In this document: positions 841 through 17,448 of the stretch, in pieces
How positions within the stretch are numbered: position 1 is the first letter of the stretch
Layout: the number at the start of each line of letters is the position of its first letter
From: Bacteroidota bacterium
GTDB taxonomy: Bacteria; Bacteroidota; Rhodothermia; Rhodothermales; JANQRZ01
NCBI GenBank assembly: GCA_038746285.1
Contig: JBCDKT010000003.1
Coordinates: forward strand, 80,003 to 144,002
DNA length: 64,000 nt
Direction: 5' to 3'
Program-made: the position numbers and the translations under genes
The notes under the pieces: model-generated
Seen by the model: only the letters and a program-made list of their open reading frames with translations
Told to the model about the DNA's origin: nothing
The model's database searches: none

Positions 841-899
841 GGTTAGCGCGGCGGCTGAACTTCAAGCGGAATCCGTGTGGGGGCTGTCCGAGTCGAGGG
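841..899. repeat. Diverged duplicate (relic) of the 3' end of the FAD-oxidoreductase gene; left flank of the ATPase/TOPRIM cassette
   Basis: Hand alignment of 842-892 to 2812-2860 gives about 37 of 51 columns identical with one 2-nt gap. Core is GGAATCCG(T/C)GTGGGG(G/T)CTG..CGAG. The complement of a stop codon (tta 843-845 vs cta 2813-2815) sits at the same aligned position. Confidence 0.55.
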
Positions 900-940
900 C
901 GCTATATTTAGCCGAGCGACGCACCGCACTGCCCTTAGCC

Positions 941-2113
941 ATGTCCGACTTGCTGCTCGACAGCCTGCTCATCGAGAACTTCCGTGCCTTCAAGCGGCTG
1001 GAGGTGAAGGAGCTTGGCCGGGTCAACCTGATCGTCGGGAAGAACAACGTCGGGAAGACGGCCCTGCTCGAAGCACTCTGGTTGTATGCTGCGCGAGGGG
1101 CGCAGCACGTTCTGGCTGAGGTTGTTCGGCGGCGAGACGAAGTAGCTTTTTTATCTGCGCGGCTTCGTCCTGAGGAGCCTTTTGATTGGACGCAGGCCAT
1201 TTCAAGTCTGCGTTATGGAAGGCCTTCTCCTGCTGAACTACCTGATGTCGGGCAGAACCACGATGCTTACAGCTCGATCGATGAGAGGCAACTTTTCTCC
1301 GTAGGCTCTGCCTATGCTACCTCGACTGCCGTGCATTTCACACTCGAGATGCCCAGGGTAGGATTGAGTATTCACGATCCCGCTTATCAAAAAGAGATGT
1401 GGTTCGGGGCAGTAAATCCCGAATGGTTGGCTGGTCAGAATGAGCGTTACCCTCTCGCGGGAAGCCTAGCGAAAGCACTAGGAGCGCGTCCGCCGCATTC
1501 AATGGTCCCTCACTATTTTGTGCCGTCATCAGGGCTGAGTCTCTCTAAACTGAGTCTCGCCTGGAAGGAGGTTGTGCTAGCAGGCAGAAAGGATGTGGCT
1601 CGGAGGGCAATTCGCAAGATCGACGGTAGTATAAAAGATATAGACTTTGTATCGGCTGCTGACGTATTCGATAGGGAAAGCGATAGAGATATAGAGTTGT
1701 CTCTCATTCCGATATGCCAGCGCGAGAACGAGGTCGTGCCAGTTCCGCTGAGGAGCATGGGAGAGGGTATGGATCGCCTGCTTGGACTGGGTCTTGCTAT
1801 CGTAGTAGCAGATGGAAGAAACGGGGGGATACTGCTGGTAGATGAGATCGAGAACGGACTTCACTACTCGGTGCAGCCGGACATGTGGCGGCTGGTCTTT
1901 GAGACGGCGGCAAAGCTCAACGTGCAGGTTTTCGCCACAACGCACAGCCTCGACTGCATCCGGGCGTTCCAGGCGGTGGCCGAGGAGCACCCGGAGGAGG
2001 GGCGGCTGATCAGCCTGCGGCGGAAGCAGGACGCGCCGGATGAGATCGTAGCCATCGAGTTCGACGAGCAGGGCATGGAATCCATTGTGCGCTCCCACAT
2101 CGAAGTCCGCTGA
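941..2113 (+). CDS. ABC/AAA_21-type ATPase (OLD / AbiLi / AriA-like), 390 aa
   Basis: ORF track 875..2113; preferred start is ATG 941 (MSDLLLDSLLIENFRAFKRLEV...). Walker A GKNNVGKT, signature-like SMGEGMDRLL, Walker B ILLVDEIENGLH, H-loop ATTHS. The central part is visibly less GC-rich than the flanks. Confidence 0.75.
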   Translation: MSDLLLDSLLIENFRAFKRLEVKELGRVNLIVGKNNVGKTALLEALWLYAARGAQHVLAEVVRRRDEVAFLSARLRPEEPFDWTQAISSLRYGRPSPAELPDVGQNHDAYSSIDERQLFSVGSAYATSTAVHFTLEMPRVGLSIHDPAYQKEMWFGAVNPEWLAGQNERYPLAGSLAKALGARPPHSMVPHYFVPSSGLSLSKLSLAWKEVVLAGRKDVARRAIRKIDGSIKDIDFVSAADVFDRESDRDIELSLIPICQRENEVVPVPLRSMGEGMDRLLGLGLAIVVADGRNGGILLVDEIENGLHYSVQPDMWRLVFETAAKLNVQVFATTHSLDCIRAFQAVAEEHPEEGRLISLRRKQDAPDEIVAIEFDEQGMESIVRSHIEVR

Positions 2114-2117
2114 GACG

Positions 2118-2816
2118 ATGGCGCATCGGTTCCGTCTGCTCGTGGAAGGCCAAGACGACTGGCACGTCCTGAGTAACTTGCTGAACGAGCACGGGGTCGA
2201 GGCATGGCGTGTCAGGCCGAGTAGCCGGGAAGACATCGGCGACAAGATCGCGGTCGAGGCAGCGGGAGGGGAAGAAGACGCCAAGAAGGGTGGGGTTGAT
2301 AGGCTGCTTAAGGACCTGGCATTCCAACTCCAGCAGAGCGACCAGGAGCGGGTCGGGATCGTCGTCGATGCTGACGAGAACCTTGCAGCACGGTGGCAAG
2401 CGGTATGCACTCGAATCGGACGTGCAGGCAATGTGGACCTACCGGGGGCACCCGATCCAGCCGGTACGGTCGTCACGCTGGAGCAGCCGGACCGAACGCT
2501 GGTGGTCGGCGTCTGGCTGATGCCGGACAACACAGATGACGGCATGATCGAGGACTTTCTGCGCTTCCTGGTCCCGGAAGGTGACGCTCTGCTGCCTCGT
2601 GCCGAACGCTGCCTTGAAGCCATCCCAGAGAACGAGCGACTCTTCGCGCAGGGAGACGCAGACCACACCTCGAAGGCGCTCATGCATACGTGGCTAGCGT
2701 GGCAAGACGAGCCGGGGCGACCGCTCGGGCAAGCCGTTACGCATCGCTACCTCGATGCTCAAGCGCCCCGTGCGCTGGCTTTCGTCGAGTGGGCGAAGCG
2801 CCTGTTCGGCCGCTAA
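2118..2816 (+). CDS. TOPRIM-like partner protein (DUF3226 / DUF4435 / RloB-like), 232 aa
   Basis: In-frame ATG 2118 within ORF 2085..2816, 4 nt after the ATPase stop. N-terminal FRLLVEGQDD supplies the TOPRIM Glu and GIVVDADEN the DxD motif. The exact Pfam family cannot be assigned without an HMM search. Confidence 0.6.
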   Translation: MAHRFRLLVEGQDDWHVLSNLLNEHGVEAWRVRPSSREDIGDKIAVEAAGGEEDAKKGGVDRLLKDLAFQLQQSDQERVGIVVDADENLAARWQAVCTRIGRAGNVDLPGAPDPAGTVVTLEQPDRTLVVGVWLMPDNTDDGMIEDFLRFLVPEGDALLPRAERCLEAIPENERLFAQGDADHTSKALMHTWLAWQDEPGRPLGQAVTHRYLDAQAPRALAFVEWAKRLFGR

Positions 2817-2870
2817 CGCGGCACTCGAACCTCTGGTGGAATCCGCGTGGGGTCTGCGAGGTAGTCGGGG
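2811..2870. repeat. Right-flank copy of the duplicated segment (the functional 3' end of the FAD-oxidoreductase gene)
   Basis: Partner of 841-899. It encodes the last ~17 codons (DYLADPTRIPPEVRVPR*) of the minus-strand gene 2813..3877. Confidence 0.55.
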
Positions 2871-3877
2871 AGGTGCCGAACGAGGAGGGGAACCGTGAGC
2901 AAGCCCTTCGACCCGAGTCCGCTGAACACCCACACGCGCCGATGGCCCAGCGGCCCGAGGAGCGGGAGCCGGCGCGGCGAGTGGGTGCGCGGAACGGTCA
3001 CCCGGACGCCCGCCCGTGCGCCGAGAATCGCGGCGTCGGCGAGGGCCGGGAGCATCTGCGCTGCCTTCGCCCGCAGCGCTTCGGACTGTGCCCGGTGCGG
3101 CTCAACGTCGTCGAAGGTGTGCTCGTACGAACTGCCGACGATGAGCGCGCTCCCATCCGGCACGACGTAGCCGAAGCCGGAGAGTGCGGGGAGGTCGACG
3201 AGGCCGTCGGGCCGGGCGAGGCGGATCGTCTGGCCTTTGATGCGGTGGAGCGGAAGCGCGCTGAGCGGGGAGAAATGCCGGAACCCGTCGCCCAGAGCAA
3301 GCATGAGGTGGTGAGCGTCGATCCGCTCGCCGGTGACCATCGTCACTGAGACGGCGCGCTCGGTCTCGGTCCAGCCCGTCACGCGCATGCCGGTGCGGAC
3401 CGCCGCCCCGCGCGCCTCGGCCGCCCGGAGCAGCACCGTCACCATCTCGGCGAGATCGACGGACCCACCGCCGGGAACCCACAGCGCACCGTGCGGAGCA
3501 GCGACGTCGGGGTACTTGGCGGCGAGCGTGTCGGGCGAGTGCCAGGCGGCGTGCTCCGGCAGCGCCTCGGCGCGGGTGCGGAAGTGGTGCGCCTGCGCTT
3601 CGTCGCGGGCGGGACGGAGCACGCCGGTGGCGCGGAACAGGTCGGTAGCGCCCGCGAGGGCGAGCGTCTCGTGGAGGGCAGCCAGCGCCTCCTCGAAGCG
3701 CCACGCCGGGTTCGCCCGCTGGCCCATCATCGGGTTGACGAGACCTGCCGCCGCGCCGGATGCGCCCGCCGCCGGTCGCTCGGCTTCGAGGACGGTCACC
3801 GCACCGCCGTGCTCGGCGAGCCACAGCGCCGCCGACGCCCCAGCGAGTCCTGCTCCGACGATCACGGTGCGCAGCAT
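2813..3877 (-). CDS. FAD-dependent oxidoreductase (DAO superfamily)
   Basis: ORF track 354 aa. N-terminal Rossmann dinucleotide motif VIVGAGLAGASAALWLAE. Its stop overlaps the convergent TOPRIM gene stop by 4 nt. Confidence 0.8.
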   Translation of the reverse strand: MLRTVIVGAGLAGASAALWLAEHGGAVTVLEAERPAAGASGAAAGLVNPMMGQRANPAWRFEEALAALHETLALAGATDLFRATGVLRPARDEAQAHHFRTRAEALPEHAAWHSPDTLAAKYPDVAAPHGALWVPGGGSVDLAEMVTVLLRAAEARGAAVRTGMRVTGWTETERAVSVTMVTGERIDAHHLMLALGDGFRHFSPLSALPLHRIKGQTIRLARPDGLVDLPALSGFGYVVPDGSALIVGSSYEHTFDDVEPHRAQSEALRAKAAQMLPALADAAILGARAGVRVTVPRTHSPRRLPLLGPLGHRRVWVFSGLGSKGLLTVPLLVRHLPDYLADPTRIPPEVRVPR

Positions 3878-3935: not shown

Positions 3936-5120
3936 ATGACTGCTACCCCTCCACCTTCAACCGAGGTCGCCGTCGTCGGCGGCGGCGTGGTCGGCCTCGC
4001 CCTCGCGTGGCGGCTCGCCGAGCGGGGCCGCCGCGTGACGGTGCTGGAGCGCGAGGCTGTCGGGCGCGGGGCCTCCTACGCGGCGGCCGGGATGCTTGCG
4101 CCCGCCGCCGAGATTCAGTTCGAGGAAGCCGACCTCTACCGGCTCGGTCGGGAGAGCCTGCGCCGCTGGCCCGCCTTCGCCCGCGACCTCGAAGCCGCGA
4201 GCGGGATCGGCGTGGACTACCGCGGTGAGGGCACCCTCGTCGTCGCCGACGACCGCGACGCGGCCGAGGCGCTGCGGCGGCTCTACCGGTTCCAGCAGGA
4301 CCACGGCGTGCCCGTCGAGTGGCTGACTGGGGCCGAGGCGCGCGAAATCGAACCCATGCTCTCGCCTCGTCTCGCAGCCGCCGTCCACTCGCCCGAGGAC
4401 CACCAGGTGGACAACCGGCGGGTGCTGGAGGCCCTGCGCGTCGCCGCCGAACGCGCCGGCGTGACGGTCCGGGAGCAGACACCGGTGCGGGCCGTCGAGC
4501 CCAACGCAACGCGTCCCGCTGTCGTTACCGGCGAGGGCGAGCGCATCGAGGCGTCGGCCGTGGTGCTCGCCGCCGGGGCGTGGGTGCGCAGCATCGACGG
4601 CATCGAGCCGGCACCGCCGGTGCGCCCGGTGAAAGGGCAGATGCTGTCGCTGCAGATGGAGCGTCCGTTCGAGTTGCGCCACGTCGTGCGCGGGCCGGAC
4701 GCCTACCTCGTCCCGAAGTCCGACGGCCGCCTCGTCGTCGGCGCGACGAGCGAGGAGCAGGGGTTCGACACGGCGCTGACGGCGGGGGGGCTGTACCGCC
4801 TGCTCGAAGCGGCCGTCGAGGTCGTTCCTGGGATCGAAGAACTGAAGGTGACCGAGACGTGGGCGGGGCTGCGGCCCGCGAGCCGGGACCACGCGCCGCT
4901 GATCGGGACGGCCGCGCCGGGCGTTGTCCTCGCTGCCGGGCACTACCGGCACGGCGTCCTCCTCACGCCCGTCACAGCCGCCGAGCTCGCGCTCGACATA
5001 GACAGCGCCCTCGCGGAAACCACAGAACGCGGAGCATCCGGGTACTCTGTGCCCGAAACCTCCGAATGGCTCGCCCCGTTTGCCCCGGCCCGCTTCGACC
5101 CCGCTTTCCCCGACTCCTGA
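3936..5120 (+). CDS. thiO: Glycine oxidase ThiO
   Basis: In-frame ATG 3936 inside ORF 3333..5120. MTATPPPSTEVAVVGGGVVGLALAWRLAERGRRVTVLE..., DAO fold. First gene of a thiS-thiG-thiE-thiD operon. The upstream 200 codons of the track ORF overlap the minus-strand gene and are rejected. Confidence 0.85.
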   Translation: MTATPPPSTEVAVVGGGVVGLALAWRLAERGRRVTVLEREAVGRGASYAAAGMLAPAAEIQFEEADLYRLGRESLRRWPAFARDLEAASGIGVDYRGEGTLVVADDRDAAEALRRLYRFQQDHGVPVEWLTGAEAREIEPMLSPRLAAAVHSPEDHQVDNRRVLEALRVAAERAGVTVREQTPVRAVEPNATRPAVVTGEGERIEASAVVLAAGAWVRSIDGIEPAPPVRPVKGQMLSLQMERPFELRHVVRGPDAYLVPKSDGRLVVGATSEEQGFDTALTAGGLYRLLEAAVEVVPGIEELKVTETWAGLRPASRDHAPLIGTAAPGVVLAAGHYRHGVLLTPVTAAELALDIDSALAETTERGASGYSVPETSEWLAPFAPARFDPAFPDS

Positions 5121-6208: not shown

Positions 6209-6855
6209 CAGCGGGCAGCGGACAGAGGACCGCCGACGGCGAGCGTCGCGCCCTGCCGCGCCTCGTGCTGATCGCCGACGGGTTTACGAGCGAGGCGGTG
6301 CAGCGGCAGGTCCTCGAAGCCGTGCAGGCGGGGCGGCTGTGGCTGCACCTGCGCGACCACGCAGCGTCCGACGAGGCGTTCGCCCAGGCAGCCCACGCGC
6401 TGGCAGCGCAGGTGCGAGCTGTTCGGCCTGGGACGCTCGTCTCCGTCAACACCCGCACCGAAGTAGCTCGGCCGCTTGGGGTCGGGCTCCACGTCGGCAC
6501 GCGCGGGCCGTCGGTCGCCGAGGCGCGACGTCGGCACCCCGGTGCGCTGCTGAGCTACGCTGCCCACACGCCCAGCGAGGCGCGAGCCGCCGCCGAGCAG
6601 GGTGCCGACGCCGTGCTCTTCAGCCCGATCTTTCCGACGACGAGCAAGCCCGGCCACCTCGGCATCGGCCTCGAAGCCCTGGCGGCGTGCTGCGCGGCGG
6701 TGCCGGACACGCCCGTCTTCGCGCTCGGCGGGATCACCCCGGCGCGTGCCGCGTCGTGTCTCAGCGCCGGGGCCTACGGCGTCGCCGTGCTCTCCGGCAT
6801 CCTTCGCGCACCTGACCCCGCTGCTGCTACCGCCCTCTACCTCGACGCGCTATGA
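6205..6855 (+). CDS. thiE: Thiamine-phosphate synthase ThiE
   Basis: Frame of track ORF 5278..6855. GTG 6205 overlaps the thiG stop (GTGTGA). ...LVLIADGF...LWLHLRDH...GVGLHVG...[18 protein letters not shown]...FALGGI. Confidence 0.8.
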
Positions 6856-7683: not shown

Positions 7684-9528
7684 CTACTCCGGGAGGTCCA
7701 GGACGCTCCCGACCGAGTGGATCACGCCGTTCGTCGCAAACTGGTTGGCAGTGACTCCCAGTGTGCAGTCCACTAGGTTAATGCCTATTTCCTCGCCAGT
7801 GTCCGGGTCAAAGATCGGAACCTCTGTGCAGTTGAGACGGACTATGCCAGCACCGGGATAAACGCGGAGGTCCGGCCCCCCCAGCGTAGGCAGGCGGAAG
7901 AACAGAGAGTCGGGTATGGTAGGCGTGACGGTCGAGTCGATCAAGTCACGGATCTCGTAGAGGCCCGGGACGATGTGGTACTCCATGGTGCGACGCCGCG
8001 TCGAGGAGGGGAGGATCACCCCGTTGAAGGCTACGTCGGTGGGGGCAAACACGGTATAGGGACCCTCGCCGCGCGGGTCTTCGCCGCGCAGTAGGGGTGT
8101 CAGCCCCGCGCTACGCATCGTGTTGAGGAAGCTGTAGAGTGCGCCGAAGACCGCCCGCTCTTCAAGGTCGAGATCAGGGGGAAGAATGAACGGGGAGATC
8201 GAGTAGATCAGCCCGTTGCGGGTCTCGATGGGAGGGATCGTGACCTCGCCGCGCCCGCCGACGAAGACGCGCGTGCCCCCCACGTCGTCGAGGGTCTGGA
8301 CCTGGAGGCTGTAGTCGCCCAGCGTGGTGAGCGGGGTCGAGCGCATCATCAGGTCGTCGGGCTCTAGGCGGCCCGGGACGACGTGGTACTGCGCCGTGCG
8401 AAGCTGCAGGTCGGCGCGGAGTTGGAGTTCGTCTATGAACGGCTCGCCGAGCGGTTCGAGCGCGGGGTCGGTGGGGACGAAGAGGGTGAACGTCTCGTCG
8501 CTGCCGAGCGTGCCGAGCAGGCCGGCGTTGCCGAAGACGTCGTAGAAGTCCATCAGCTGGGGCTCGATCTGCAGCCGCTCGGCGAGGCTGAGGTGGCTCA
8601 GCACGACCGTGTCGAGGAGGTAGATCAGCCCGTCGATGGCCTCGACCGCCTCGATGATGACGCGCGCCTCGCCGACGAACGTCAGTCCGCCCTCGGCCCG
8701 GACCGGGAGCGGCTCCCCGTCGAGCGGTTCGAGCACGACGCCGTCTTCGAGGTCGTCTGCTTGGAGTCGGCCCGGCAGGACGTGGTGGCGGAGGATCGTG
8801 CCGAGGACGCTTCGGTTGCCGAAGCGCTCGAGCGTCTGGAGTCGCGCCGGGCCGAGGGCGTCGAAGGCGCTGTTGATCGGGACGAGGAGCGTGCGCGGCT
8901 CGCCGGAGGCCACGAGGCCGTTCAGGTCGGCCACGTCCAGGAAGTCCGCGAAGTCGCTCAGCAGGGGCGTCACGCGCAGGCGCTCGGCGAGCGTCAGGTG
9001 GTCGCGCACGAGGTCGCCCAGCAGGTGCACCACCCCGTTGCCGGCCTCGACGCTGGTCTCGGCGACGAGGCCGCCGCCGACGGTGACCGTCCGGTCCTCG
9101 TCGTCGTCTCCGTCTTCGACGCGCACCTCCAGCGGGGGGCCATCGAGCGGTTCGAGCACCTGGCCGTCCTGGAGGTCGGCCAGCAGGATCCGCCCGGGGA
9201 CGAGGTGGCGCCGCAGCAGCTTGGTCAGCACGTCCTGGTTGACGGTGCGGCCGAGGAGTCCGATCATGTCCTCGCCCAGGCCGTTCAGGGCCTCGTTGGT
9301 CGGCGCGAAGAACGTCAGGTCACCGCTGCCGGTGCGGAGCGTCGAGGCGAGGTCGAGGTCGTCGATGAGGTCTTCGAGCACCTCCAGGTCTTCCGAGACG
9401 GCCACGACCGCGAAGAGGTTGTCGCCGAGTGCTTCTGAATCCGCGTTGTCGCAGCCGGCGACGAAGAGGAGGCCCGCCGCGGCAGTGGCCAACAGGCAGA
9501 CGAGGAGCAGGCGCGAGACGGCAAACAT
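7684..9528 (-). CDS. Lipoprotein with four fasciclin (FAS1) domains
   Basis: ORF track 614 aa. Lipobox LFVAGC. Four repeats of the FAS1 pattern (TLFAPTNEAF...L..HV.PG...DG..L..L.G..L.V). Confidence 0.85.
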   Translation of the reverse strand: MFAVSRLLLVCLLATAAAGLLFVAGCDNADSEALGDNLFAVVAVSEDLEVLEDLIDDLDLASTLRTGSGDLTFFAPTNEALNGLGEDMIGLLGRTVNQDVLTKLLRRHLVPGRILLADLQDGQVLEPLDGPPLEVRVEDGDDDEDRTVTVGGGLVAETSVEAGNGVVHLLGDLVRDHLTLAERLRVTPLLSDFADFLDVADLNGLVASGEPRTLLVPINSAFDALGPARLQTLERFGNRSVLGTILRHHVLPGRLQADDLEDGVVLEPLDGEPLPVRAEGGLTFVGEARVIIEAVEAIDGLIYLLDTVVLSHLSLAERLQIEPQLMDFYDVFGNAGLLGTLGSDETFTLFVPTDPALEPLGEPFIDELQLRADLQLRTAQYHVVPGRLEPDDLMMRSTPLTTLGDYSLQVQTLDDVGGTRVFVGGRGEVTIPPIETRNGLIYSISPFILPPDLDLEERAVFGALYSFLNTMRSAGLTPLLRGEDPRGEGPYTVFAPTDVAFNGVILPSSTRRRTMEYHIVPGLYEIRDLIDSTVTPTIPDSLFFRLPTLGGPDLRVYPGAGIVRLNCTEVPIFDPDTGEEIGINLVDCTLGVTANQFATNGVIHSVGSVLDLPE

Positions 9529-12923: not shown

Positions 12924-12997
12924 GCGCCGGTAGCTCAGCTGGATAGAGCGTCGCACTACGGATGCGAAGGTCGGGGGTTCGAATCCTCCCCGGCGCG
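12924..12997 (+). tRNA. tRNA-Arg (anticodon ACG)
   Basis: GCGCCGGTAGCTCAGCTGGATAGAGCGTCGCACTACGGATGCGAAGGTCGGGGGTTCGAATCCTCCCCGGCGCG. 7-bp acceptor stem, D-loop AGCTCAGCTGGATAGAGC, anticodon loop CTACGGA, T-loop GGTTCGAATCC. CCA is not encoded. Confidence 0.92.
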
Positions 12998-13004
12998 CAG
13001 CGCA

Positions 13005-15883: not shown

Positions 15884-16552
15884 CTAGCCGTCAACCGGCT
15901 CGGTCTCCACATCGACGTCCACCGGCACGCGGATGTTGCCGATAGCCTCGCCGAGGTTGTCGAAGCCTTCGGCGATGCCGCGCTTCATCTCGTTGAACTC
16001 CTCGGCCGTCGCGTCGCCGAGGCGGTCGAGGTCGGCGGCGAGTTCTTCGCGCTGGGCTTCGAGCGCGGCCCGTGCCTCGGCCGCTTCCTCGCTGGCCTCG
16101 TTGCCAAGCGCCTCCATCTCGCGGTCGATCTCTTCGAGCTGGCGGCCAGCCGCCATGCGAAGCTCCTCGGCGTTCTCGGCCATCGCGAGCTGCGCTTGGT
16201 CGATGTCGCGGTCGAGTTCGGCGAGGTTTTCGTCCATCTCCATCTTCATCTCGTTGAACTCCTCGGCCGTCTCAGCCTGCATCGCGTCGATGTTGTTGGC
16301 GATCTCCATGCGCTCTTCGCGGAGGTCAGCGATCATTTCGTTGTACTCCTCTTGCGCCTCTGCGCTCGCGCTGGCTGCTTTGGTTTCGAGTTCGGTAATC
16401 GCCTCATCGAGTTCCGCCGTGCGGACGTCGATGTCGGCGCGGTAGGACTCAATGTCAACGTCGAGTGTGCCGTCGGGCTCTTCGGTGGTCTCCACCTGGC
16501 AGGCTGCGAGGAGGACGAGGGAGCAGAGGGTGAGTAGAGAAAAGCGTGTCAT
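15884..16552 (-). CDS. Acidic coiled-coil lipoprotein, function unknown
   Basis: ORF track 222 aa. Lipobox LLAAC. Strongly acidic heptad-like sequence. TAEEFNEMK occurs twice, encoded by a perfect 28-bp direct repeat. Confidence 0.6.
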   Translation of the reverse strand: MTRFSLLTLCSLVLLAACQVETTEEPDGTLDVDIESYRADIDVRTAELDEAITELETKAASASAEAQEEYNEMIADLREERMEIANNIDAMQAETAEEFNEMKMEMDENLAELDRDIDQAQLAMAENAEELRMAAGRQLEEIDREMEALGNEASEEAAEARAALEAQREELAADLDRLGDATAEEFNEMKRGIAEGFDNLGEAIGNIRVPVDVDVETEPVDG

Positions 16553-16600
16553 GATGGGTAGGGAGATGGGTAGGAGGGGACGAGAGACTAGCTGGACTGG

Positions 16601-16843
16601 TCAGGTCTTGCGTTGAACGAAGCCGACGATGAGAAGCAAGAGAATCGCTCCCACCGTGGCTGTGACGAGGCTCCCGATCAGGCCGCGAGCCGCGAGGCCG
16701 AGCAACCCGAACAGGAAACCTCCGATGAAGGCACCGAGGACGCCGACGATCAGGTTGGCGAGCAGGCCCATCGACGTGTCCGTCACCTTCTCGGCGATGA
16801 ACCCTGCCAGCAGACCGATGAGGAGGAAGAGAAGGATGTTCAC
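16601..16843 (-). CDS. GlsB/YeaQ/YmgE (transglycosylase-associated) family small membrane protein
   Basis: In-frame GTG 16843 within ORF 16601..17197. VNILLFLLIGLLAGFIAEKV...GVLGAFIGGFLFGLLG...VGAILLLLIVGFV. Confidence 0.8.
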   Translation of the reverse strand: MNILLFLLIGLLAGFIAEKVTDTSMGLLANLIVGVLGAFIGGFLFGLLGLAARGLIGSLVTATVGAILLLLIVGFVQRKT

Positions 16844-17078
16844 AGCACGAGTGCGATGAATCGAGGTGTCAGGCTCCGCTGGCGTGCTCGACGACCTGGG
16901 CAAGGCGAAGGGCGTCGCTGAGCGCGGGGAGCAGAAGAGAAGAGATGCGCCGTTCAAACCCGGTGCGTACTGTTTTGTTGCATGTCTGCCCTGTGTGCTG
17001 CGCGGCAAGCCGGGCAGGCAGACGCGACGAAGACCCCAGCGCAAGGAAAAGCGCCAGGGTCTTCGTGTTGCCAATCTG

Positions 17079-17448
17079 TGGAGATGCCGGGGGTCGAACC
17101 CGGGTCCGAAACGAGCTACAGTCCAGGCGTCTACATGCGTAGTCCGCGTATTGAGAGTCTTTGCCCATGTGGCGGTGCCCACGAACAGGGCTTCCACACG
17201 AGCGCAGGCTGGTTGGGTTTCACTGCTTCGGCTCAGCCGGAGCCTACGCAGCTAGCTTATCTAAGTCGATGCCTCAGGAAAGGCCGGTAAGCGAGCCAAT
17301 CGGGAGACAGATGGAGGCTTTAAGCCGCCATCGCGTACGAGTAATCGTTCGCAGTTATCAGGTTTCTCAGCGTGGGTCACGGGCGTACTGAGAACCACCC
17401 GACACGCAGCCTGCCGCACGATCGCTCCGTCGAATCCAAAACATCCCC
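17079..17448 (-). ncRNA. ssrA: tmRNA (ssrA)
   Basis: Minus-strand 5' end GGGGATGTTTTGGATTCGACGG and 3' end GGACCCGGGTTCGACCCCCGGCATCTCCA (T-arm, acceptor with G3.U). Tag ORF GCG AAC GAT TAC TCG TAC GCG ATG GCG GCT TAA gives ANDYSYAMAA (about 17320-17352). Confidence 0.88.

Follow-up and report, generated by a model that had tools for sequence, protein, structure and literature searches.

Systems that combine an ATPase of the ATP-binding cassette (ABC) type with a TOPRIM protein, among them OLD, Gabija, PARIS and AbiL, are a major theme of bacterial immunity, and their effector families are still being sorted. The present work concerns a two-gene cassette (positions 941–2816) in a 64,000-nucleotide stretch of the Bacteroidota assembly GCA_038746285.1 (contig JBCDKT010000003.1, order Rhodothermales), hereafter called the window. 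The question raised by this locus is whether the pair is a defence module of that kind and to which effector family its second gene belongs. A preliminary description, made from the letters of the window, had proposed a foreign ABC-ATPase plus TOPRIM-like pair of split-OLD, AbiL or PARIS type, had left the family of gene 2 undecided between DUF3226, DUF4435, RloB and DUF4276, and had suggested that the pair might be a variant not yet characterised. The searches reported here assign both genes to an already catalogued defence candidate and point to a strongly diverged TOPRIM-like domain in gene 2.

Identity of the two genes

Both proteins are recognised by PADLOC models of the candidate system PDC-M38. 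Gene 1, the ATPase, matches PDC-M38A (PDLC04611) with an E value of 1.4e-85 (protein residues 6–390, model positions 2–383 of 383), and PDC-M38B (PDLC04624) is the sole PADLOC match of gene 2 (1.9e-48, residues 4–230); the A and B models are thus matched full length by adjacent genes on the same strand. By these matches the cassette is the PADLOC candidate PDC-M38 / DUF3226, which is already catalogued. The proposal of a foreign two-gene ABC-ATPase plus TOPRIM-like defence candidate is therefore supported, the PADLOC models recognising it, and the supposed uncharacterised variant is not. The PDC systems are 145 "guilt-by-embedding" candidates listed without test (Payne, Hughes, Fineran & Jackson 2024; 10.1101/2024.01.29.577857), PDC-M38 appearing in the supplementary cassette table of that study, where seven of nine candidates with the embedding signature were validated. 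The basis on which PDC-M38 was defined is that its relatives are embedded in modification-based defence systems; the window copy does not differ from them in kind.

Gene 1 encodes an ABC ATPase of the AAA_15/AAA_21 type (Pfam AAA_15, 6.6e-25, 88.9 bits, cut-off 32.1; AAA_21, 2.7e-19, 70.8 bits, cut-off 27). It carries the motifs GKNNVGKT, SMGEGMDRLL, ILLVDEIENGLH and ATTHS and comprises a Walker A motif (G33-K39-T40), a signature (S-x-G274-E275-G276), a Walker B motif with the catalytic Glu (D301-E302) and an H-loop (H335). In an alignment of 42 homologues G33, K39, G274, E275, G276, D301, E302 and H335 are invariant or nearly so, and residues from about 95 to 200 are variable. The full ABC/AAA_21-type motif set attributed to this gene at the outset is thus borne out both by the Pfam scores and by its invariance. 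Weaker PADLOC matches were obtained to AbiLi (1.8e-49) and to AriA (1.9e-25, conserved ATPase core only), and weak matches among PDB sequences to the Thermus scotoductus OLD protein (6p74) and to PtuA. The N-terminus also matches RecF, RecN and Rad50 models weakly.

Gene 2 is a full-length member of DUF3226 (Pfam PF11536; E 1e-60, 205.5 bits, cut-off 27; protein residues 6–230, model positions 3–207 of 208), a result that settles the family left undecided before. It matched no model of DUF4435/AriB, RloB/AbiLii, DUF4276 or HEC-01 in Pfam and PADLOC; the AriB/DUF4435 and DUF4276 models likewise failed to match any of 50 homologues, and no AbiLii-named or RloB model was matched either by gene 2 at E values up to 1 or by 50 of its homologues at E values up to 10. 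The protein consists of an N-terminal alpha/beta domain (residues 1–140), in which E10, D14 and D84-x-D86 occupy TOPRIM-like positions within the motifs FRLLVEGQDD and GIVVDADEN, and of a C-terminal helical domain with an invariant K186 and an HTWLAWQ-EPG motif. Among the 50 homologues E10, D14 and D84 are invariant, and position 86 is Asp or Asn.

The arrangement and length of the two plus-strand genes (gene 2 of 232 amino acids, a gap of 4 nt at 2114–2117) and the motifs quoted for them were confirmed from the sequence. Longer open reading frames (ORFs) starting at GTG or TTG do not represent the real starts, because the homologue alignments of both genes begin at the same methionines. The ATPase and the DUF3226 protein are separate ORFs in the window and in all relatives. 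One metagenomic protein (P0148, 471 amino acids) has lost the acidic N-terminal domain of DUF3226, so that its ATPase part runs straight into the remaining C-terminal half, and is probably a decayed copy. A natural ATPase-DUF3226 fusion was considered as proof of a functional link and rejected, P0148 being a deletion product.

Probable relationship of gene 2 to TOPRIM nucleases

DUF3226 is quite probably a strongly diverged TOPRIM-like domain. Two AlphaFold2 models of gene 2, one of the full length and one of residues 1–142, have predicted local distance difference test scores of 93.8 and 89.2, and their predicted order of elements is b1(5–9)-a1-b2-a2-b3(78–84)-a3 followed by a hairpin. In this order the acidic residues sit where strands 1 and 3 end on their C-terminal side, which is also their position in TOPRIM; the models thus place a conserved Glu after strand 1 and a DxD after strand 3 of an alpha/beta core.

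Profile comparisons also favour a TOPRIM relationship. As the OLD reference a diverse alignment of 36 class 1 OLD TOPRIM regions was built from a search of representative proteins; a search with the TOPRIM region of P2 Old gave only five fragments, and a scan of viral contigs for Old gave only close relatives. Aligned with this reference by hhalign, the DUF3226 profile scored a probability of 81% (E 1.2e-5), against 0.4% for the reversed template and at most 2.4% for 30 column-shuffled templates. The alignment pairs LLVEGxDD with LLvEGKTE together with the glycine region of strand 2, the confident part covering residues 2–69, and a greedier setting additionally pairs IVVDAD with ivDLDf. Comparisons of the DUF3226 profile with single sequences were weak (P2 Old, 13%; a DUF4276 protein, 3%). 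In Pfam searches of 50 DUF3226 members OLD-like_TOPRIM was the second most frequent family after DUF3226 itself (10 members, best E 0.008), with OLD-like_TOPRIM_1 found in two and Toprim_4 in one, all at sub-threshold scores. At the level of profiles, and as far as sequence comparison goes, this is a first explicit link of DUF3226 to the OLD TOPRIM, added here.

Several results weigh against this assignment. Foldseek returned no TOPRIM structure among the top 50 matches, either for the full-length model against PDB and BFVD or for the N-terminal model against PDB, and its best matches were the N-terminal domain of DUF1537 and generic Rossmann-like folds, with template modelling (TM) scores of at most 0.50. 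No solved structure was found by the DUF3226 profile among PDB sequences, where neither the profile nor the gene 2 sequence detected a DUF3226 relative and nothing was matched apart from a designed repeat protein below threshold. In Pfam gene 2 itself matched no accepted TOPRIM family, and every Toprim-family match of the DUF3226 members falls below threshold.

Such results would fit a DUF3226 that is no nuclease. Its N-terminal part would then bind a ligand or act in regulation through a generic Rossmann-like domain, and the two genes together would serve some other ATP-dependent function. The generic alpha/beta folds found by Foldseek (best DUF1537, E 4e-4, TM 0.46–0.50) are in line with this, as are the replacement of the second Asp of DxD by Asn in some members and the location of the most conserved region in the C-terminal HTWLAWQ-EPG helices, which have no counterpart in the confidently aligned part of OLD. 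This explanation is nevertheless considered unlikely: the placing of three invariant acidic residues at strand ends has no easy alternative explanation, the profile match to the OLD TOPRIM lies far above the shuffle controls, sub-threshold OLD-like_TOPRIM matches recur in a fifth of the members, and the partner ATPase is of a clade that pairs with nucleases (AbiLi, AriA, GajA, PtuA). The TOPRIM claim of the preliminary description is favoured by motifs, modelled topology and profile match, and finds no echo in the structure search.

The top PDB match of the residues 1–142 model was 5dmh_B, the N-terminal domain of a DUF1537 four-carbon acid sugar kinase (E 4e-4, reported probability 1.00, TM 0.46); the resemblance is probably a generic Rossmann-like likeness.

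With regard to known systems, the split-OLD, AbiL or PARIS affinity proposed earlier survives as a related two-gene architecture and fails as membership, since gene 2 matches none of the corresponding effectors. AbiL of Lactococcus is likewise a two-gene operon with the ABC ATPase first and a predicted TOPRIM/OLD-like nuclease second (PMC13064643), and an orthologue of gene 1 (in L005) matches AbiLi even more strongly than gene 1 does (2.7e-88, full length); the second gene, however, is DUF3226 rather than an AbiLii or RloB partner. PARIS, which serves as the proposed working model (PMC11464382), also combines an ABC ATPase with a separate small TOPRIM effector, but AriB is a DUF4435 protein, AriA shares only the ATPase core with gene 1 and is reported at 53–55 kDa against 390 amino acids here, and a search of phage records gave no DUF3226 copy on a phage or satellite. 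OLD proteins (class 1 P2 Old and class 2 GajA of Gabija) share the ATPase clade (6p74), the E...ExxxD/E...DxD layout and, for class 1, the profile alignment described above. They differ in being single polypeptides, whereas a stop codon and the 4-nt gap separate two ORFs here; in addition, the similarity to PF20469 is sub-threshold, Foldseek gives no match, and the C-terminal helical domain of DUF3226 has a motif of its own. The same two-gene layout occurs in HEC-01/MADS3-4, and a HEC-01 pair shares one Hma system with a DUF3226 pair (L009), but its effector is DUF4276 and there are no cross-hits, the genuine DUF4276 protein of that locus matching HEC-01 models and not PDC-M38B.

Gain of the cassette and distribution of the pair

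The cassette is compositionally distinct, as had been noted before. Bin 1001–2000 has a GC content of 55.5%, the lowest of all 1-kb bins of the window (other bins 63–74%), and GC at third codon positions (GC3) is 0.63 and 0.72 for the two genes compared with 0.85–0.97 for typical genes of the window. Also in agreement with the preliminary description, the cassette lies between housekeeping genes and overlaps its convergent right neighbour by 4 nt (Table 1). On the left is a class I fructose-bisphosphate aldolase gene (fbaB type; NCBIfam E 2.5e-134), on the minus strand from 776 and running off the left end of the window; on the right a DAO-family oxidoreductase dependent on flavin adenine dinucleotide (FAD), which has MnmC C-terminal/ThiO-like matches in NCBIfam below cut-offs, is followed by thiO, thiS, thiG, thiE and thiD.

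Table 1. Coordinates of the cassette genes and of the features at its borders.
Feature	Position in window	Strand	Remarks
Gene 1, ABC ATPase (PDC-M38A; AbiLi-like)	941–2113	+	ATG 941, TGA 2113, 390 aa
Gene 2, DUF3226 protein (PDC-M38B), predicted effector	2118–2816	+	ATG 2118, TAA 2816, 232 aa
DAO-family FAD-dependent oxidoreductase	2813–3877	-	354-aa ORF; insertion target at its 3' end; outside the system
Left copy of flanking direct repeat	829–892	not assigned	displaced remnant of oxidoreductase 3' end
Right copy of flanking direct repeat	2800–2860	not assigned	oxidoreductase 3' end in current use; overlaps gene 2 stop
Non-coding motif GCGCTATATT-N5-GAGCGAC	899–920	+	20–40 nt upstream of gene 1 start

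An imperfect direct repeat brackets the cassette; its two copies align locally with a score of 43, a value that 500 shuffles did not approach (highest score 27). A flanking target-like duplication had been noted before, and it proved to be longer than first reported. What is repeated is the 3' end of the oxidoreductase gene: the copy beside fbaB reads ..PTRIPLEVQPPR* in frame and the live gene ..PTRIPPEVRVPR*. On the minus strand the left copy encodes ..APTRIPLEVQPPR*, with the stop at 843–845.

An empty site occurs in a Rhodothermales metagenome-assembled genome (MAG; L001), where the oxidoreductase gene (protein 74% identical to that of the window) is followed after 57 nt by fbaB (90%) with nothing between. 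The distal part of the left repeat copy (GAAGTTCAGCCGCCG) is identical to the uninterrupted gene end of this relative, and the ancestral end of the oxidoreductase gene has therefore been pushed aside; the end now in use must accordingly have come with, or evolved next to, the cassette. Two other MAGs (L002 and L022) have filled sites, with the cassette at the same position and the same repeat structure. The cassette is clearly a horizontally acquired insertion, and the locus, with its empty and filled sites and a target duplication, provides a clean natural example of gain. Strict housekeeping synteny, which had been named as a finding that would speak against a defence cassette, was looked for and not encountered, given the empty site and the unrelated contexts of the pair elsewhere.

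The cassette may have entered the chromosome on a circular DNA with a short target-like segment, by a Campbell-type single crossover with the oxidoreductase gene at its 3' end; such a crossover would have duplicated about 45–64 nt of the target and supplied the replacement gene end. There is no integrase within the 2-kb cassette. An integrase beside the thi operon was considered as mobiliser and rejected: L002 has a phage-type integrase gene after thiD (L002:11994–12708), whereas the corresponding position of the window is occupied by a 614-amino acid fasciclin-domain protein (7684–9528, minus strand), and a different element therefore lies at that position in the relative.

Upstream of gene 1 the motif GCGCTATATT-N5-GAGCGAC is invariant in the three filled sites (L002, about 4829–4850; L022, about 1993–2014) although the gene 1 proteins are only about 62% identical. 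Judged from this conservation, the motif is probably a promoter, leader or regulatory site of the cassette, and it probably marks the left end of the inserted DNA. A sigma-70 scan gave nothing meaningful upstream of gene 1 and did not call the motif.

The four genomes (the window and the three relatives) share 84–90% identity in the aldolase and 70–75% in the oxidoreductase, and each pairwise comparison of the three filled sites gives about 62% identity for gene 1. Gene 2 has diverged or been exchanged much faster in one lineage, because the window and L002 (6001–6708) proteins are 80% identical and that of L022 (3181–3846) is only 36–41% identical to either; this suggests replacement of gene 2, or its very fast divergence, at the same site. 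Comparison of the window with L002 gave ratios of nonsynonymous to synonymous substitution rates (dN/dS) of 0.20 (gene 1) and 0.11 (gene 2), rough values with dS near saturation; both genes are under purifying selection and maintained. Synonymous divergence in the same comparison is 1.1–1.3 for the cassette genes and about half of that (0.48–0.62) for the flanking housekeeping genes; the higher values could reflect weaker codon bias, an older split or exchange of the cassette. Within the thi operon ThiE (6235–6852 in the window) is only 52% identical between the window and L002, compared with 91% for ThiG and 81% for ThiD, an unusual divergence in an operon that is conserved otherwise.

In other genomes the association of the two genes is constant. 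An AAA_15/AAA_21 ATPase gene directly precedes the DUF3226 gene in each of the 12 fetched loci that show the upstream gene. In 11 of these the two genes overlap by up to 4 nt or are at most 4 nt apart, the exception (L006) having only a truncated ATPase fragment of 105 amino acids, 45 nt upstream; the genes are probably translationally coupled. Their contexts are diverse. In two loci (L005 and L009) the pair is found inside Hma systems, between the SNF2 helicase and DUF1156 methylase genes, packed together with MazEF, MNT/HEPN, UPF0175/DUF3368 and ATPase plus DUF4276 (PADLOC HEC-01) cassettes. Elsewhere it adjoins an Mrr restriction gene (L007), lies near ParE/Phd (L006 and L008) or forms part of the small gene cargo of a mobilizable ColE-type Citrobacter plasmid of 6.4 kb (L011); further plasmid copies were found on several small Acinetobacter plasmids and on one Plesiomonas megaplasmid. 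The pair moves between genomes, plasmids and defence islands as a self-contained unit.

Two side observations concern these loci. The Hma-type systems (L005:2655–16630 and L009:2896–16627; SNF2 helicase, DUF1156 methylase and DUF499 ATPase) carry small two-gene cassettes between their genes. In two loci that differ in other respects (L008:1889–2593 and L023:5946–6806) the gene directly preceding the pair belongs to the uracil-DNA glycosylase family, which may indicate shared ancestry or a functional link.

Proposed function and remaining observations

The cassette is read here, with moderate confidence, as a self-contained and horizontally acquired module of the "ABC ATPase sensor plus nuclease effector" type, and by analogy with related systems a defence function is likely. 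In such a module the metal site of a TOPRIM-type metal-dependent phosphodiesterase would be built from E10 and D14, where strand 1 ends, and from D84-x-D86, where strand 3 ends, K186 being a possible catalytic lysine of DUF3226. The ATPase would keep the nuclease inactive until an infection cue is sensed; the effector, then released or activated, would cut host or invader nucleic acid (tRNA or DNA), and the resulting growth arrest would abort the infection, as experiments have demonstrated for PARIS (AriA/AriB) and P2 Old. Substrates of both types occur among related enzymes, since GajA and a Vibrio class 1 OLD nick DNA and AriB and Old cut tRNA. In PARIS a hexamer of AriA holds AriB until a phage trigger releases it to cleave tRNA-Lys (PMC11464382), and the TOPRIM site of P2 Old opens up to cleave tRNA when the tetramer is destabilised (10.64898/2026.07.10.737580).

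Some points tell against a defence role. A literature search retrieved no paper naming DUF3226, PF11536 or PDC-M38 in its main text, and in the single published assay of HEC-01, a related candidate made up of an ATPase and a DUF4276 protein, no protection was seen. Moreover, the window cassette stands alone among the housekeeping genes of a Rhodothermales-like MAG, outside any defence island, a situation which fits the remark of Payne et al. that embedded-type candidates are often solitary.

Alternatively, the pair could be a selfish addiction module resembling a toxin-antitoxin (TA) system, in which the DUF3226 toxin is held in check by the ATPase and the genes are kept because their loss is harmful, with no net benefit against phages. 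Its presence among the few genes of the small mobilizable plasmid and on the Acinetobacter plasmids would agree with addiction, as would its interleaving with classical TA pairs and its retention at the same chromosomal position in genomes that share only 70–90% identity in the flanking proteins; PARIS itself behaves as a type II TA system (PMC13064643). The two roles are, however, not exclusive, PARIS being a real defence system despite its TA-like behaviour. Embedding in Hma defence operons is, in addition, the signature that was validated in seven of nine cases by Payne et al., and L001, where the site is empty, demonstrates that this position need not carry the cassette. Addiction as the sole role is thus held to be improbable, to about the same degree as the non-nuclease explanation discussed above. 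A housekeeping DNA-repair pair analogous to RecF (an ABC ATPase) and RecR (a TOPRIM protein; Aravind et al. 1998, cited in PMC11464382), to which the weak RecF, RecN and Rad50 matches and the two uracil-DNA glycosylase neighbours might point, is very improbable, considering that gene 1 scores 39.2 bits against a cut-off of 172 for the RecF equivalog TIGR00611 and only over its N-terminal 70 residues (the P-loop region), that the pair is patchily distributed, foreign in composition and missing from the same site in a close relative, and that it occurs on plasmids and embedded in defence systems.

Beyond the reading as a sensor-effector defence module, a more specific proposal can be put forward tentatively, at somewhat less than even chances: DUF3226 may represent a branch of its own among TOPRIM-derived effectors, not described before, with its own C-terminal module (K186 and HTWLAWQ-EPG) and too diverged for structure searches to reach. 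Together with the AbiLi-like ATPase it may constitute an additional class of split OLD-like abortive-infection systems, one that responds to its own trigger and acts on its own substrate, and the cassette may spread as an integrase-less 2-kb unit that targets the 3' ends of genes.

The locus ties an orphan family, DUF3226, to the theme of ABC-ATPase plus TOPRIM immunity and offers testable catalytic residues both in the effector (E10, D14, D84, D86 and K186) and in the ATPase (K39 and E302). If a defence role of PDC-M38 were proved, the validated classes would grow by one and a new TOPRIM-like effector fold would become available for study; a failure to defend would be a useful negative for "guilt-by-embedding".

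Elsewhere in the window, the second lowest GC content (63%) is found in bin 16001–17000, just 3' of a transfer-messenger RNA (tmRNA) gene, and an adjoining ORF of 222 amino acids (15884–16552) has no Pfam match. The tmRNA gene (17078–17448, minus strand) encodes the tag peptide ANDYSYAMAA, and a tRNA-Arg(ACG) gene is located at 12924–12998 on the plus strand.

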